From positions 194,596 through 258,595 of the forward strand of contig CAWFOM010000005.1 of NCBI GenBank assembly GCA_963817385.1: a stretch of 64,000 nucleotides of DNA, read 5' to 3'. Shown here piece after piece: positions 10,316 through 17,151 of this stretch (position 1 is the stretch's first letter; each line of letters starts with the position of its first letter). Made by a program: the position numbers and the translations under genes. The notes under the pieces were generated by a model. The model was not told the origin of the DNA, made no database searches, and saw only the letters and a program-made list of their open reading frames with translations. This DNA comes from an uncultured delta proteobacterium. Lineage in GTDB: Bacteria > Desulfobacterota > Syntrophia > Syntrophales > UBA5619.

Positions 10316-10642
10316 ATGCGAGGGATCAGTATCGTCAGAGCGTTTCTCAGCCGGTTTTCTTTTACTCGGTCCGCGCGGCTGATGACGGCGGCGGTCCCGG
10401 CATTCCTGATGAACCCCGCCGTCTCCCCGGCAGCGGAAAAAGTGGCCGAAAAGGTGGCGGAAAAGATCGCCGTCTTTCCCACGGCACCCTACTACCAGTA
10501 CATCGCTTATGAATGCCTGGCCGTCTTCTGGATCGCGATCCTCGGCCTGCTCGTCATCATCCGTATGAAACTTCGGGAAATCGAACGTATCCAGGCACTG
10601 GGCGTGGAGCGGGATGACCAGGACGCCCCCTTGCTGCAGTAA
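10316..10642 (+). CDS. Hypothetical small membrane protein, last gene of the sdh-Rieske-cyt b operon
   Basis: 108 aa. An AAGGAG RBS lies 5 nt upstream and the gene starts 9 nt after cyt b. It has an EKVAEKVAEK low-complexity stretch followed by one TM helix (CLAVFWIAILGLLVIIRM). It has no CxxCH motif. Confidence 0.55.
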   Translation: MRGISIVRAFLSRFSFTRSARLMTAAVPAFLMNPAVSPAAEKVAEKVAEKIAVFPTAPYYQYIAYECLAVFWIAILGLLVIIRMKLREIERIQALGVERDDQDAPLLQ

Positions 10643-10763
10643 GCTCCGGGATCCTCATCACATCCCCCGAACCTCAGAGCAGCCCGTTGTCCGCTGCATC
10701 GCGTGGTCTATCCCTCTTTTTTCACAATGCAGGTGGGAGGTGTTCGGAGTTACGGTGGGCCGC

Positions 10764-11336
10764 TCAATACCATCCCATCAATCGGGAACGCAGATATTTC
10801 CGGGCGTCCTTATTGCCCATTTGAGCGGACACCTTGATGTTATCGGTGCCTTTGTAACCCTCTCCGGGCATGCCCCTCTGGATAAGGCCGAGAAAGAAAC
10901 GGGCTTCCACATGCTTTGGGTCCATAGCGACAACGTCGCTAAAATCCATCACGGCCAGATGGTATTCTTCCTCTCTTGCGAAGGCGATACCGCGATTGAA
11001 GCGAAACATCGCCTCATCGGGGTCGATGCCGATCGCCCGATTGTAATCCTGGATCGCCAAGCGGTAGTTTCCCAATTCGCTATAGGCGACACCCCTGTTG
11101 TTATACGCATGCGCGGAGTTGGGGGTCAGCTCGATAACCCGGCTGAAGGCCTCGACAGCCTTACGATAGTTGCCTATTTCTCCCATAAAACGTCCGCGGT
11201 CGAACCATTCCTGGGCGCTCAGCGCCGCATCCCGGCCTGCCGCCGAAGCAGGACAGATCGGTAAGCACAGATACGCAAAGACTAAGGTAAAAAACGAAAT
11301 CCGGATGAGTCTGATACGTAGCGCCAGTGTCTTCAT
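10764..11336 (-). CDS. Secreted/lipoprotein-like tetratricopeptide (TPR) repeat protein
   Basis: It has the signal-like N-terminus MKTLALRIRLIRISFFTLVFAYLCL and several TPR units (GNYRKAVEAFSRVIELTPNSAHAYNNRGVAY...). The start is taken at the internal ATG at 11336. Confidence 0.8.
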   Translation of the reverse strand: MKTLALRIRLIRISFFTLVFAYLCLPICPASAAGRDAALSAQEWFDRGRFMGEIGNYRKAVEAFSRVIELTPNSAHAYNNRGVAYSELGNYRLAIQDYNRAIGIDPDEAMFRFNRGIAFAREEEYHLAVMDFSDVVAMDPKHVEARFFLGLIQRGMPGEGYKGTDNIKVSAQMGNKDARKYLRSRLMGWY

Positions 11337-11560
11337 GAATGCCCGCCATGGGAATCCCGGCAGCACGGCATTATGTCCGTCCGGTCGATCGGCCCGGAGA
11401 TCCGCCGTACCCTGAGAATACTCATTTATTATCGGCAGAATTTCCGAAATACTTTATCCACCCCCGGTGGTTGTACCGTTAATCAAGGACATTAATAACT
11501 CTTGACAAACCTGTGGATTCCGATGCAGTCTGAAATACATAGTTAGGATGAGAATCATTC

Positions 11561-11851
11561 ATGACTGCTTCTGCTTCGCTTCATAAAAGGAAAACGCTGC
11601 TTCTCGTTGTCCTTTTTCTCGGTTTTTCCGCTTTCACGGCGGATATCCTGGATCTGCGCGAAGAACTTCACATCCTCTCCTGCCCTTACAGCAGTCTGGA
11701 CAACAACGTCTCGACCGGTTTAACCAATAACCATCCCTTCGTGCCGGAGCAGATTCCCACCCTGTGCTCCGTTCACCTGAAGGGATCGGCTAAAATATCA
11801 TTTCTGCATCTATTGCCCTACGGTTACCGCGCGCCTCCCTCATGGTCTTAG
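11561..11851 (+). CDS. Hypothetical protein with a signal-peptide-like N-terminus (weak call)
   Basis: 96-aa ORF in an AT-richer region with a hydrophobic N-terminus (LLLVVLFLGFSAF). It has only a weak RBS and no recognisable motif. Confidence 0.25.
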   Translation: MTASASLHKRKTLLLVVLFLGFSAFTADILDLREELHILSCPYSSLDNNVSTGLTNNHPFVPEQIPTLCSVHLKGSAKISFLHLLPYGYRAPPSWS

Positions 11852-12078
11852 GACCACTCGTTGTTCGGATTCCTTAGCTTCGTTCCAAATCCTTATGACC
11901 CACCGGCGGAAGGATAGCTGACGTATCTTTCGCCCCAGGGAAGAGTTTCCGAACATTTTTTCCGAAACATAATTCCATGATCTGCAGAATGTCTACGACA
12001 TGCGTTTGACGTTATTGATGTTTCCATAACATCAGGGATATTTGAAGATTCTCATGATGAAGGGAGGTGAGATACCGA

Positions 12079-12174
12079 ATGGACTCACGATTGATCGGAC
12101 TAGTCTTGGTAGCGGCGATGGTGTGTTGGGCTGCCTATAAAGTTTGGCAGATGCGTAAGGATAAGAAGCAATAA
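12079..12174 (+). CDS. Small single-TM peptide (31 aa), absent from the ORF track
   Basis: MDSRLIGLVLVAAMVCWAAYKVWQMRKDKKQ. A GGAGG RBS lies 11 nt upstream. It is a paralog of the next sORF. Confidence 0.45.
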   Translation: MDSRLIGLVLVAAMVCWAAYKVWQMRKDKKQ

Positions 12175-12237
12175 GGCGATCCGGCCCAGGAATAACCGCT
12201 GGGAGGATTTCCCCTTAAAGGATGGAGGATAAATAAC

Positions 12238-12336
12238 ATGGAGAGCTCATGGTTCGGCGGAATCATCATGCTGGTTATGGTGGTGGGTCTCGGCGTGTGG
12301 ATATGGCGGATGATGCGGCAGAGTAAAGAACAATGA
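12238..12336 (+). CDS. Small single-TM peptide (32 aa), absent from the ORF track
   Basis: MESSWFGGIIMLVMVVGLGVWIWRMMRQSKEQ. A GGAGG RBS lies 9 nt upstream. It has the same architecture and W-x-W-R/Q-M...K-x-Q tail as the sORF at 12079. Confidence 0.45.
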   Translation: MESSWFGGIIMLVMVVGLGVWIWRMMRQSKEQ

Positions 12337-12461
12337 AGGCTCAAGGGGCGACGGGATATTCCCGTAAGGTTGTATCTCCGTCAGCTCTTCGGATGGTGGA
12401 GTTTCATTGGAGGTAAAGCCGCGGAGAAAACAGTACCGTTCTCGTCCGGGAGGAAACCATT

Positions 12462-12686
12462 ATGACTGCAAACAAGACCTATAGTCACCATTGTACCAAA
12501 TGCAACAAGGAAACGACGCATGTACCGGCGCGTTCCCTGTCCGTGCGGGTCGCAATCCGCACCTGGAAAATTTTCATCTTCTTTATCAGCGCGGGGATGG
12601 TGTATCCTCACCCCCTTCCGTCTGATGAGGATGCAGTTGAGATAACCTGTACGAAATGCCTCACGCACAGCACCATCAACGGATAA
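12462..12686 (+). CDS. Small zinc-ribbon-like protein with a central hydrophobic segment
   Basis: 74 aa with two CTKC (CxxC) motifs, one near each end, flanking WKIFIFFISAGMVY. A GGGAGG RBS lies 8 nt upstream. Confidence 0.5.
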   Translation: MTANKTYSHHCTKCNKETTHVPARSLSVRVAIRTWKIFIFFISAGMVYPHPLPSDEDAVEITCTKCLTHSTING

Positions 12687-13079
12687 CATGCCCTCAGCGA
12701 CAGGCTGTTTCCGGGAGGTTCCGATCATGACGGCGTTTTCACGAAAGAAGCGCCGTCATGATCTCCCCGGTCGCCAAAAAAAAGGGATGGCCGGATCAGA
12801 AGAACGGGCAGATAAAGAAGAATCGTCATGCAGCCTGCCTATCCCTTCCAAAGGGGTTGAAGAAACATCCTTCTGCTGTTATAATCACGGATAATCGTTG
12901 TCGGCCTACCGGTGGTTCAGCGGGCGAGTCATGTAATGGCAGCGGGACCTGAAAGAGATTTTATTATCCAGAGAAAGCACCGCCATTCCCGGAATGAAGG
13001 GATTCGGATTCCCGTGCTAAGACATCCGTAACCAAGTCTCGCGTACCGTGGATATTTTTGACGATGAGGTTTCAATTCT

Positions 13080-14870
13080 ATGATCAGTTCCCTTGACTTA
13101 GGGTTGATCGGCAACGGCCGTATCGGGGCTTTGATTAATGACAGCGCCGAGATCGTCTGGAGCTGCCTGCCCCGTTTTGACGGCGATCCGGTTTTCTGCT
13201 CCCTGCTGAAGGAGCATCATGATGGTGAAGACTTCGGTTATTGCACCGTTGAGCTCGTCGATCTGGCTGCATCCGAGCAGTACTACCTCACCAACTCGGC
13301 GATTCTCGTTACGCGGATGACCGACACCCAGGGCGCCGTCGTGGAGGTGACGGACTTTTGCCCCCGCTTTCATCAGTACGGGCGCATGTTCACTCCCATG
13401 ATGCTGGTCCGGCAGATCAGGCGGGTGGACGGCGCACCCCGTATCCGCCTGCGGATCAGACCGGCATACGACTATGGCCGCCACCGCTGCCCGGTGACCT
13501 GCGGCAGCCATCACATCCGCTATGTGGCGCCTGATTGGGTTCTGCGGCTGACCACCGATATGTCCCTGACAGCGGTTCTCGAGGAGACGCCGTTCTTTCT
13601 GGAAGACAAGGCCACGCTGATCTTAGGGTCCGATGAGACCATTCCAGATACCATTAGCGAGCTGTCCCGTCGTTTTCTCGATGAGACGCTGGCCTTTTGG
13701 CACGAGTGGGTGCGGGAGATCGCCATTCCCTTCGATTGGCAGGACGTGGTCATCCGTTCCGCCATCACCTTGAAGCTCAATACCTTCGAGGATACGGGCG
13801 CCATTGTCGCCGCCATGACCACTTCCATACCCGAGGCGCCGGATTCAGTGCGCAATTGGGACTACCGTTACTGCTGGATCCGGGATGCCTATTTTGTGGT
13901 CAACGCCTTGAATCGCCTCAGCACGACCCAGACCATGGAGAAGTATCTGAGTTTCCTCGTCAACGTCGTGGCCGGCGCTCCCAACGGACGTATCCAGCCC
14001 GTGTACGGCATCGACGGCAGGGCTCGTCTGGACGAACGCGAGGTCGATTCGATTCCCGGGTACCGGGGCATGGGACCGGTGCGGATCGGCAACCAAGCCT
14101 ATGAGCAGATTCAGCATGACGTGTACGGATCGGCGATCCTGGCCGTCGCCCACGTCTTTTTCGACCGCCGTCTGGTACGCCGGGGGGACGAGGCGCTTTT
14201 TCGAAGACTGGAATCCTTGGGGGAAACGGCCGTCGCCGTCCACGATCAGCCGGACGCCGGGCTGTGGGAGCTCAGAGGGAGACTGCGCGTCCACACCTTC
14301 TCCGCCGTGATGTGCTGGGCAGCCTGTGATCGTCTGGCAAAGATCGCAGCGAAGCTGGGCCTTAGGGAACGTTCCGTCTACTGGCGCGACCGGGCGGATC
14401 GTATCCACACCGTCATCTGCAAGCGGGCCTGGAACGAGAAGAAACGGGCCTTTGTTGCCGTCTTTGAGGGAGATGCGCTTGATGCGAGCGTGCTGTTGTT
14501 GCACGATATCGGATTCCTTGAGGCCGGCGATCCCCGATTTTCCATGACGGTGGCGGCGATCGAACGGGAGCTCAAACGTGGCGATTACGTCTACCGCTAT
14601 ATCGAGGCCGACGACTTCGGCGTGCCGGAGAATGCCTTCGTGGTCTGCACCTTCTGGTACATGTACGCCCTGGCGGCGCTCGGGCGCATGGATGAAGCCC
14701 GGAATCTATTCGAAAATCTGATTGCCAGATGCAACCGCCACGGACTTCTTGCCGAACATATCAATCCCCGAACGGGTGAACAGTGGGGCAACTTCGTTCA
14801 GACCTACAGCATGGTGGGACTGATCAACTCGGCCATCCGGCTCAGCAGGCGCTGGGACAGGGCGTTCTGA
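13080..14870 (+). CDS. Glycoside hydrolase family 15 protein (glucoamylase/trehalase-like)
   Basis: 596 aa with the N-terminus LGLIGNGRIGALINDSAEIVWSCLPRFDGDPVFCSLL and a WDYRYCWIRDA motif typical of GH15. It sits upstream of otsA-otsB. Confidence 0.9.
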   Translation: MISSLDLGLIGNGRIGALINDSAEIVWSCLPRFDGDPVFCSLLKEHHDGEDFGYCTVELVDLAASEQYYLTNSAILVTRMTDTQGAVVEVTDFCPRFHQYGRMFTPMMLVRQIRRVDGAPRIRLRIRPAYDYGRHRCPVTCGSHHIRYVAPDWVLRLTTDMSLTAVLEETPFFLEDKATLILGSDETIPDTISELSRRFLDETLAFWHEWVREIAIPFDWQDVVIRSAITLKLNTFEDTGAIVAAMTTSIPEAPDSVRNWDYRYCWIRDAYFVVNALNRLSTTQTMEKYLSFLVNVVAGAPNGRIQPVYGIDGRARLDEREVDSIPGYRGMGPVRIGNQAYEQIQHDVYGSAILAVAHVFFDRRLVRRGDEALFRRLESLGETAVAVHDQPDAGLWELRGRLRVHTFSAVMCWAACDRLAKIAAKLGLRERSVYWRDRADRIHTVICKRAWNEKKRAFVAVFEGDALDASVLLLHDIGFLEAGDPRFSMTVAAIERELKRGDYVYRYIEADDFGVPENAFVVCTFWYMYALAALGRMDEARNLFENLIARCNRHGLLAEHINPRTGEQWGNFVQTYSMVGLINSAIRLSRRWDRAF

Positions 14871-14891: not shown

Positions 14892-17151
14892 ATGAAGCTT
14901 CGGGCGAAAAGAAAAGCACTGTTTCGTTCCCTGCGTCTCTCGCTGCGGTTCATCGTTCCTCTCGCCATCGCACTGGCGATACTGGCCTATTCCGTCGTGC
15001 CTCTTGTCGATAGGCTCAATCTCCGCTGGTCCGTCCGTGACATGGACATCCGTGCAAAGCTCATCGCCAGCACTCTTCAGGAACCTCTCACCGATCTTCT
15101 GCAACAAGGCAACAAATCCAAAATCAACGCCTTGTTCGCGCGTGCGCTTCGGGATGAACGGCTCTTTGCCCTCGGTTACTGCGACGAGGGGGGGAACATG
15201 CTCCATCGCACGCCGACATTTCCGAAGGATCTCAGTTGTACCTCGCCCGGTCCATCGGCGGATAAGCCGGGCCTTCTGCTGAAATTGCCCCAAGGGCTGG
15301 TCCATGTTGCGGTAAGTCCCTTGGCCTATGAAGGCATGCCCGCCGGGACCCTGATACTGGTCCATGACATGAGTTACGTCGAGAGGCGAAGCACCGATAC
15401 GCGGAAATATATCATCCTGCTGTTTGTCGTTCTCGGTGTGGTTACCTCACTGATCACGGTCTTCGTGGCCCACCTGAGCTGGCGCGGCTGGATGGAGGGC
15501 GTCAGGGCGATGTTGCGTGGCGAAGGGATACTGCGACCCTTCTCACGGCCCACAAACTCCGAATTGGAACCGCTCGTGGGCGATCTGCGCAGCCTGCTGC
15601 GGACGATTGACGAAGAACGGCGTTTTGCCGACGATGCCACCATCTCCTGGACGCCCGATACCCTGCGGGGCCTTCTCCACAAGCAGCTGTCCGGCGACCA
15701 GGTGCTGGTCGTCTCCAATCGGGAGCCCTACATCCACATGAAGAGTGAAACGGGCATTGAAGTGAAACGGCCGGCAAGCGGACTGGTCACAGCGGTCGAA
15801 CCGGTCATGCGCGCCTGTTCGGGGACATGGATTGCCCATGGCGGGGGCACCGCCGATCGGGAGGTCGTGGACCGGCACGACCGGGTGTCGATCCCTCCCG
15901 GGCATGCCGATTATACGCTGCGGCGCATCTGGCTCACCAAGGAGGAAGAGGACGGCTATTACTACGGGTTTTCCAATGAAGGTCTCTGGCCTCTGTGCCA
16001 CATCGCCCATGTTCGCCCCATTTTCCGCACCAGCGATTGGGAACAGTATGTGGCGGTGAACCAGCGCTTTGCCGATGCCGTGGTCGAGGAAGCCGACAGA
16101 GACGACCCGGTGGTCCTCGTGCAGGACTATCATTTTGCCCTCCTGCCGGCCATGATCCGCAGGCTCCTGCCCCGGGCGACACTGATCACCTTCTGGCACA
16201 TTCCCTGGCCCAACCCCGAATCCTTCGGCATCTGCCCCTGGCGTGAGGAATTGCTCCAGGGCATGCTCGGCAGCACCATCCTCGGCTTCCATACGCGTTT
16301 TCACTGCAAAAACTTTCTGGAAACCGTCGACCGCTATCTTGAAACCCGCATCGAGCACGAATCGTCGACCATCTCCCACGGCAGCATGCTGACCCTGGTG
16401 GAGAGCTATCCCATCTCGATCCAATGGCCGCCCCCCTGGCAGGAGACGCAGCCATCGGTGGAAGAGTGTCGCGCCTGGGTACAGCAGGCCCTGCACCTGG
16501 ATAAGGATCGCCTGATCGGATTGGGTGTGGACCGTCTGGATTACACGAAGGGCATCCTCGAACGCCTGCGGGCCGTTGAACTCCTGCTGGAACTGCATCC
16601 CGAGATGATCGGCCGCTTCACGTTCATCCAGACTCGCCGCCCCCTCCCGTTCCATCCTTGAAGACTACCAGGCCCTGGACACCCGGGTACGCTCCCTGGC
16701 CGCACGGATCAATGAACGGTTTTCCCGCGGTTCGTATCAGCCGGTCTGTCTCAGGATCGAACACCACGAACCCGAAGTGATCAACCGCTACTACCGCGCC
16801 GCCGATGTCTGCATGGTGACGAGCCTCCATGACGGCATGAATCTCGTGGCCAAGGAATACGTGGGCTCCCGCGACGATGAACGGGGCGTTCTGGTGCTGA
16901 GCCAGTTTACCGGCGCGGCTCATGAACTGCACGAGGCCCTGATCGTCAACCCCTATCACATAGAACAGACGGCGGATGCATTGTTCCAGGCCCTGACGAT
17001 GCCCGATTTCGAACAACGGGAAAGGATGTGCAGCATGCGCGCCCTGGTGAGGGACTTCAATGTTTATCGCTGGGCCGGGAGGATGCTGATCGATGCGGCG
17101 CGCATCCGGCAGCGGGAAAAGCTTGCCGTCCGGATCGGTCGCCCGTTATGA
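14892..17151 (+). pseudogene. otsA: Trehalose-6-phosphate synthase (GT20) with an N-terminal 2-TM extension, interrupted by a single-base frameshift at about 16632-16633
   Basis: ORF 14892-16661 carries the GT20 core (VLVVSNREPY..., GFSNEGLWPLCH, LVQDYHFALLP). The C-terminal part continues in frame +1 (IAAPSRSILEDYQ...[25 protein letters not shown]) through ORF 16777-17151. Deleting one base restores the conserved FIQIAAPSR. Confidence 0.9.

Follow-up and report, generated by a model that had tools for sequence, protein, structure and literature searches.

A conserved cassette of four genes for small, predicted membrane proteins upstream of the trehalose genes of an uncultured Syntrophales bacterium

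Do the very short open reading frames (ORFs) found in a less GC-rich patch between two well-defined bacterial genes encode proteins, and in what might such proteins be involved? The question is raised by a 64,000-nucleotide (nt) stretch of the genome of an uncultured delta proteobacterium of the order Syntrophales (GenBank assembly GCA_963817385.1, contig CAWFOM010000005.1, positions 194,596 to 258,595; hereafter the window, whose numbering is used for all its positions), in which the GC content is 0.47-0.51 over 11300-12500 and 12800-13250, as compared to 0.55-0.64 on both sides. The first-pass annotation, made from the DNA sequence alone, had pointed to this patch between a TPR gene and the GH15/trehalose genes and had placed in it three small genes, here named pepA, pepB and zn74, at exactly the coordinates that we retain (Table 1); the Shine-Dalgarno sequences that it described are also there, of the GGAGG type and 7-11 nt upstream of each start. 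We find, from conservation and purifying selection, that the two proposed single-pass membrane peptides (pepA and pepB) and the proposed CxxC...CxxC mini-protein (zn74) are real genes, and have little doubt that these small membrane-protein genes form one unit with a fourth, orf96. In this cassette the order is orf96, pepA, pepB, zn74 and a terminal hairpin, after which there is usually a gene for a TatA protein (Pfam: PF02416) of 64-67 amino acids (aa). Neither orf96, which is inside the interval originally described, nor the terminal hairpin, nor the loss of tatA in the window had been recognised before.

The cassette does not travel with its downstream neighbour. None of 80 genomic loci anchored on GH15 carries the small ORFs, and in the closest GH15 relative, from a deltaproteobacterial metagenome-assembled genome (MAG; L001, 89% aa identity), DNA homology to the window begins at 13064, just 16 nt ahead of the GH15 gene. 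The whole unit was instead revealed by the contigs of 11 full-length zn74 homologs (73-91% identity), and it is complete in five lineages: the window, a Syntrophales MAG (L081, with L082), L083 (grouped with L084-88), a metagenome locus from a zn74 profile scan that gave at least one locus (L089), and L090 (grouped with L091). The ORFs were compared over these five lineages, the hairpin and tatA over seven. In all five, the four ORFs follow in the same order, each with an ATG, a GGAGG and a stop codon, and are separated by spacers of near-constant length (223-231 nt between orf96 and pepA, 61-63 nt between pepA and pepB, and 123-128 nt between pepB and zn74); the 31-aa pepA ORF is sometimes called as 43 aa in relatives. 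The immediate upstream neighbours, on the other hand, vary, being TPR and cytochrome b genes in the window and L081, secG (after tpiA) in L083, a P-type ATPase gene in L089, a TerC gene in L090 and an MFS transporter gene in a JGI contig. The cassette therefore stands on its own and is no leader of GH15. All taxonomically labelled relatives are Syntrophales or unclassified Deltaproteobacteria, and the families of the cassette appear to be confined to Syntrophales-type lineages, a narrow clade. With no match in viral contigs (searched with the orf96 profile only), no match in plasmids for orf96 and zn74, and no flanking repeats around the cassette, an origin from a mobile element is not supported. 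As far as its genomic contexts indicate, the cassette behaves as an autonomous chromosomal operon, and not as a segment of a mobile element or of an adjacent operon.

Small ORFs as such are abundant by chance, with 92 of at least 25 aa within 7 kb, and pepA, pepB and zn74 are judged to stand above chance because they are conserved and not because of their size. Across the five lineages, the ORFs are 71-93% identical at the nucleotide and amino acid levels, and the comparison of frames in relatives that the first-pass annotation had recommended shows them to be kept, with an excess of synonymous change. Pairwise ratios of nonsynonymous to synonymous substitution (dN/dS, Nei-Gojobori) are 0.07-0.40 for pepA, 0.06-0.31 for pepB, 0.24-0.86 for zn74 and 0.19-0.44 for orf96, at dS values of mostly 0.2-0.9 and up to about 1.8 for pepB, and variable sites fall on the three codon positions as 7/6/14 in pepA and 8/3/16 in pepB (p = 0.008). 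Coding segments are 79-93% identical to the window and free of indels; spacers are 58-76% identical and contain indels, roughly as the observed dS predicts for unconstrained sequence, except for the spacer between pepB and zn74 in the closest relative, L089 (85%). In a scan of both strands, only the four cassette ORFs are open in all five lineages, save two short nested ones. From this pattern of change we are highly confident that the four ORFs all encode proteins.

The two nested ORFs, both out of frame on the plus strand (12249-12326, 25 aa, inside pepB; 12491-12625, 44 aa, inside zn74), are most simply explained by the conservation of the genes that contain them. A candidate of 115 aa on the minus strand (12381-12728), which overlaps zn74 fully, was rejected: it is open in the window, L081 and L089 but interrupted in L083 and L090, and the protein collection does not contain it. 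Also rejected was a structured non-coding element as the main feature of the patch, as RNA structure in the two long spacers is unsupported: the covariation term from RNAalifold is positive for both, so that there is no net covariation, and Rfam has no matching RNA family, either at E ≤ 1 over 10500-14000 or at gathering thresholds over the whole window. The spacer between orf96 and pepA does contain two local hairpins (11899-11975), GGCGGAAGGATA...TATCTTTCGCC and GTTTCCGAA-CATTTT-TTCCGAAAC, the first of which has a positional counterpart of different sequence in L083, L089 and L090; with five sequences, their covariation statistics are unconvincing.

The statement that none of the small genes was in the ORF track at the right size proved right in part. 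pepA is absent from public gene calls, but for orf96, pepB and zn74 these include identical sequences, each recorded on an NCBI/ENA contig of 580,689 bp, probably one and the same; the record for pepB is P0138.

Table 1. Cassette genes, associated elements and flanking genes, in window positions.
Feature	Positions	Strand	Description
TPR gene	10764-11366	minus	flank, confirmed by Pfam
CTTGACAA block	11501-11508	+	includes TTGACA (11502-11507); about 55 nt upstream of orf96; invariant in five lineages
orf96	11561-11851	+	96 aa, first gene of the cassette; basic N-terminal HKRK; hydrophobic segment at residues 13-27
pepA	12079-12174	+	31 aa, MDSRLIGLVLVAAMVCWAAYKVWQMRKDKKQ; predicted single-pass membrane peptide; Shine-Dalgarno GGGAGG at 12062-12067
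pepB	12238-12336	+	32 aa, MESSWFGGIIMLVMVVGLGVWIWRMMRQSKEQ; predicted single-pass membrane peptide; Shine-Dalgarno GGAGGA at 12224-12229
zn74	12462-12686	+	74 aa; CxxC knuckles C11/C14 and C63/C66; Shine-Dalgarno GGGAGGA at 12448-12454
Stem-loop closing the cassette	12723-12763	+	16 bp; perfect 13-bp arms; unique in the window
tatA remnant	12816-12830	+	ribosome-binding site and ATG (AGAAGAATCGTCATG); coding sequence gone
Junction of cassette and GH15 operon	12831-13063	+	234 nt, lineage-specific
GH15 gene	13080-14870	plus	flank, confirmed by Pfam
GT20/OtsA-type gene	14892 onward	plus	flank, confirmed by Pfam

The products of pepA and pepB each consist of a hydrophobic core (residues 5-19 and 8-22, with a maximum Kyte-Doolittle hydropathy over 15 residues of 2.59 and 2.64, respectively) between an acidic or neutral N-terminus and a basic tail (net charge +4 in pepA and +2 in pepB), and are predicted to be oriented N-out/C-in. 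pepA is intact in the five lineages at 71-83% aa identity, with a tail of variable length that brings it to 38 aa in L089 and P0014; in L089, the longer product results from read-through of the usual stop position (TGA to TGT). pepB, which carries small-residue glycine packing motifs (GG...GLG), is intact at 78-88% aa identity, with 21 of its 32 columns invariant across 8 sequences, and a query made of the concatenated peptides found three called homologs. The description of the two as clear paralogs was too strong. They are measurably similar, with 8-9 identities over 31 positions (BLASTP E = 2e-4 in a single comparison; hhalign probability 72%, E = 3e-5), and when the N-terminus, the transmembrane (TM) segment and the tail are shuffled as separate blocks the observed score is reached in 78 of 5000 cases (p about 0.016); paralogy is thus plausible on sequence grounds, not proven. 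In Pfam, the closest families stay below threshold, namely FixQ (PF05545) for pepB (E = 0.052, 13.9 bits against a cutoff of 29) and the FeoB-associated Cys-rich membrane proteins (PF12669) for both (17.8 bits for pepA and 13.4 bits for pepB, against a cutoff of 27). Both matches cover the TM helix only, and neither ccoNOP nor feoB adjoins the cassette in its five contexts. PDB sequence and fold searches returned no match for pepA, pepB or orf96.

In zn74, the CTKC motifs that had been noted near both ends fall on residues 11-14 and 63-66 and flank a hydrophobic helix (about residues 26-44); a YPH motif is conserved as well. Among 1.84 billion proteins clustered at 50%, the family has 17 representatives, each a stand-alone protein of about 74 aa. 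Its four cysteines and P49 are conserved down to 28-32% identity, and T18 is among the conserved residues; C14 is invariant, and C11, C63 and C66 are each found in 90% or more of the sequences, to as low as 28% identity. AlphaFold2 (AF2) models the protein as a hairpin, a helix and a second hairpin, at a confidence (pLDDT) of 60.6, or 70.0 with a more diverse alignment, and places both CxxC motifs at the turns of β-hairpins. The charge is +4 before the helix and -3 after it, and the sequence suggests that the helix spans the membrane with an N-in/C-out orientation and that the knuckles could bind metal or form disulfides. By these two predicted turn-borne knuckles, zn74 comes closest to the zinc-ribbon mini-proteins, such as the eL42/L44e-type ribbons, which have an insert between the knuckles, and the archaeal CPxCG micro-proteins; its best matches, to eL42/L44e, are weak and not significant (sequence E = 0.003; fold E = 0.027, TM-score about 0.45). 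Its insert, a hydrophobic helix that is probably embedded in the membrane and precedes the conserved YPH motif, is foreign to the ribosomal proteins. For orf96 we collected 276 homologs, nearly all of 96 aa, with two conserved blocks, ADILDLREEL..SCPYSSLDNNV and ISFLHLLPYG(Y/F)RAPPSWS, around a variable middle. Its hydrophobic segment is predicted to be a TM helix or a signal anchor, which, given the charge distribution, would be oriented N-in/C-out.

At its 3' end, the cassette is closed by a stem-loop that is found in six of the seven lineages (ΔG of -26 to -38 kcal/mol), with 94.8% of the alignment cells paired and two pairs that show compensatory changes, in L092 and L093. As no U-tract follows, it is not a canonical intrinsic terminator. 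It could serve as a 3'-end element or stabilise the mRNA, and loci without tatA keep it. tatA itself lies 3' of the cassette in four of the seven lineages (L081/82, L083-88, L089 and L090/91), followed by a DedA/VTT gene in L083 and L089, by prpD in L081 and by tctA in L090. In the window, all that is left of it is AGAAGAATCGTCATG, which aligns with AGGAGAATCGTTATG, the sequence that precedes the TatA genes of L081, L083, L089 and L090; from 12830 on, identity to the relatives falls to 39-46%, and no tatA was found anywhere in the 64 kb by tblastn. In L092, tatA is cleanly absent next to the L081-type downstream gene prpD. In L093 (740-1599), a 49-aa ORF and a HicB/HicA toxin-antitoxin pair take the place of tatA after zn74. 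The junctions of these three tatA-less loci differ while the hairpin stays with the core, and gain or loss of tatA has therefore been recurrent. A further peculiarity of this region is an insertion of about 170 nt between the hairpin and tatA in L089 (5226-5533), which is absent from other lineages.

What the cassette does can be approached from these features together. All four products would be membrane-anchored and act together: made from one transcript, orf96, pepA, pepB and zn74 would assemble through their TM helices, with the GG...GLG motifs of pepB taking part, and would either form a hetero-oligomeric inner-membrane complex of their own or dock on a larger one as accessory subunits, in the service of protein export or membrane homeostasis. 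The first-pass annotation had named small regulatory subunits of membrane complexes, type I toxin-like peptides and stress peptides without choosing among them. Subunits or accessories of a membrane complex are now favoured because of the fixed gene order, the strong Shine-Dalgarno sequences, dN/dS values of about 0.1-0.3 and the adjacency of tatA, and the type I toxin is weighed against below. We lean, on balance, towards small single-pass membrane proteins in an inner-membrane complex that is possibly linked to Tat. The link to Tat or export, which is proposed because tatA is repeatedly adjacent and because secG and DedA/VTT occur in one lineage (L083), is by itself tentative and rather doubtful, and it is unlikely that the four micro-proteins and TatA make up a lineage-specific Tat accessory, or a TatA-based device for membrane repair or export, in Syntrophales. 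If they did, Tat in these syntrophs would be a machine of five or more components, with zn74 as a cysteine- or metal-based switch.

Precedents for an accessory role are CydX of cytochrome bd, KdpF, AcrZ, CcoQ/FixQ, PetG/L/M/N and the 31-aa stressosome anchor Prli42, which share with pepA and pepB a length of about 30 aa, one TM helix and a charged tail. Like the genes of the cassette, those for such subunits have their own ribosome-binding sites, lie in operons with membrane proteins, evolve under purifying selection and are often unannotated. Unlike them, pepA and pepB are accompanied by no co-encoded large partner complex, all proteins of the cassette being small, and have no sequence similarity to the known subunits, the sub-threshold FixQ score being the best, nor a PDB match. 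TatA and TatE (PF02416) resemble the two peptides in being small, N-out, single-TM proteins, but their FGxxKLP hinge, amphipathic helix and Pfam match are all absent from pepA and pepB; none of pepA, pepB, zn74 and orf96 matches PF02416 at E ≤ 1, and the true TatA genes of the relatives are separate ORFs.

Several observations weigh against a joint complex with a Tat connection. tatA is missing in the window, L092 and L093, so that its link to the cassette is one of synteny only, and the conserved hairpin separates it from zn74, so that tatA may be its own transcription unit. A membrane-spanning helix in zn74 would put the two CxxC pairs on opposite faces of the membrane, in conflict with the single zinc site implied by the AF2 model. 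The 276 recorded homologs of orf96 stand against 11 (word-indexed search) or 17 representatives (exhaustive search) of zn74, and the four genes may thus not always occur together, or gene callers may often miss zn74; the long ORF antisense to zn74 might lead callers to suppress it and so explain part of the difference. Finally, Pfam, NCBIfam, PHROGs, PADLOC and PDB sequences gave no above-threshold match for any of the four proteins. A literature search on small membrane proteins, tatA, zinc ribbons and Syntrophus brought up nothing of relevance.

These points have to be set beside those that bear on other explanations. That pepA and pepB are tandem-duplicated, membrane-depolarising toxins of type I, checked by an antisense RNA or by mRNA structure, would agree with their size, single hydrophobic helix and basic C-terminus, in which they match many such toxins (TisB, Fst, Ibs, Ldr and AapA1 are of this type, and tandem duplication is common in their loci), as well as with the GC content of the patch, which is below that of its flanks. 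Two weak promoter-like sites on the minus strand (12488-12459 and 11995-11966, each with 9 of 12 positions) could be counted in its favour too, but such matches are no more frequent than in shuffled sequence and coincide with coding constraints on the plus strand. The two peptides further differ from these toxins in the strong, conserved Shine-Dalgarno sequence of each, in sharing an invariable unit of four genes with two further conserved proteins instead of being monocistronic, and in strong purifying selection (dN/dS down to 0.06-0.3), with conservation across lineages whose neighbours have changed. No antisense ORF, promoter or element was found to be conserved in the five lineages, Rfam gives no match, and the sole hairpin predicted to sequester a Shine-Dalgarno sequence precedes zn74 and is weakly supported, which leaves a type I toxin improbable. 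A leaderless two-peptide bacteriocin, or a pair of membrane-active toxins to which zn74 and/or orf96 would confer immunity, is suggested by the conserved order of two adjacent genes for peptides of about 30 aa and a gene for a small membrane protein, as in class IIb bacteriocin operons, by the Trp-rich composition of the peptides and their cationic charge at one end, and by the glycine-based helix-packing motifs of pepB. Yet the peptides start directly with the TM segment and have no double-glycine leader, are fully hydrophobic and TM-like instead of amphipathic, and have no ABC exporter or modification gene beside them in the five contexts; an antagonistic toxin would be expected to diversify under selection, whereas pepB has a very low dN/dS, more in keeping with a structural role. 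The host is, moreover, of the Gram-negative-type Syntrophales, a lineage from which, to our knowledge, no two-peptide bacteriocin system is known, and we hold this explanation to be very improbable.

The two remaining explanations tie the peptides to a neighbour. As accessory subunits of the Rieske/cytochrome b complex, comparable to PetG/L/M/N in cytochrome b6f or to CcoQ in the cbb3 oxidase, they would belong with the Rieske, cytochrome b and 108-aa genes that lie about 1.3 kb upstream of the cassette in the window and in L081; a length of about 30 aa and a single TM helix are typical of the small subunits of b6f-type complexes, and the weak FixQ match of pepB points the same way. This match is, however, far under its cutoff, there is no similarity to the small subunits of solved structures, a TPR gene on the opposite strand intervenes between the cassette and the cytochrome b genes, and no cytochrome b genes are present in the retrieved DNA of L083, L089, L090 and the JGI contig, so that this association is decidedly unlikely. 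In the other, the ORFs are open by chance, in a leader or regulatory sequence of the GH15/trehalose operon that encodes no protein; a non-coding leader of GH15 was one of the conditions under which the first-pass annotation would have given up its genes. This explanation could draw on the position of the region, directly upstream of GH15 on the same strand, on the frequency of chance ORFs of this size and on the conserved spacer lengths, but the whole patch is missing from L001 and the ORFs from all 80 GH15 loci, the cassette has no GH15 next to it in any other lineage, adjoining unrelated genes instead, and the substitutions are of the coding type, with neither net covariation in the spacers nor an Rfam match. 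We consider the leader to be effectively refuted. Small subunits or accessories of an inner-membrane complex thus remain our preferred reading of the cassette.

As to its boundaries, the sequence upstream of the CTTGACAA block cannot be aligned among lineages, and the block, with its invariant TTGACA, is a candidate for the -35 element of a cassette promoter; no convincing conserved -10 element follows it in the five lineages. On the 3' side, the junction with the GH15 operon has no counterpart in either the cassette relatives or the GH15 relatives. It contains the best promoter-like site of the region (12857-12885), with TTGAAG, a 17-nt spacer, TATAAT and an upstream TG, which, as a match to the sigma-70-like consensus only, is plausibly the promoter of the GH15 operon.

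Two further observations concern the flanks. The GT20 (OtsA-type) gene seems to be split in the window (14892-17151): an ORF of 589 aa (14892-16661) covers profile positions 2-317 of 473, and a separate ORF of 124 aa (16777-17151) holds the rest of the GT20 domain, while the counterpart in L001 is a single ORF of 752 aa; the split is due either to a frameshift, in which case the gene is a pseudogene, or to an error in the assembly. Further upstream of the TPR gene, where the Rieske and cytochrome b genes are located, an ORF of 108 aa (10316-10642, plus strand) with a AEKVAEKVAEKIA repeat and a C-terminal hydrophobic segment lies directly 3' of the cytochrome b gene, as it does in L081. It belongs to no Pfam or NCBIfam family and is a candidate for an additional subunit of the Rieske/cytochrome b complex.

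Small single-pass membrane proteins as such are well known, but the families described here are absent from curated libraries. The functions of small membrane proteins are known in only a handful of model bacteria, and such proteins are systematically under-annotated, as pepA illustrates, being missed in public gene calls in which its three neighbours have exact matches. The cassette adds four co-conserved, uncharacterised micro-proteins from Syntrophales, syntrophic anaerobes that are environmentally important and hard to culture, and whose membranes carry the energy-limited electron-transfer and export machinery needed for syntrophy. The adjacency of tatA provides a concrete and testable hypothesis for their role, which, if true, would make them a new kind of Tat accessory; if the link to Tat is false, they would still be four validated small genes worth adding to annotations.

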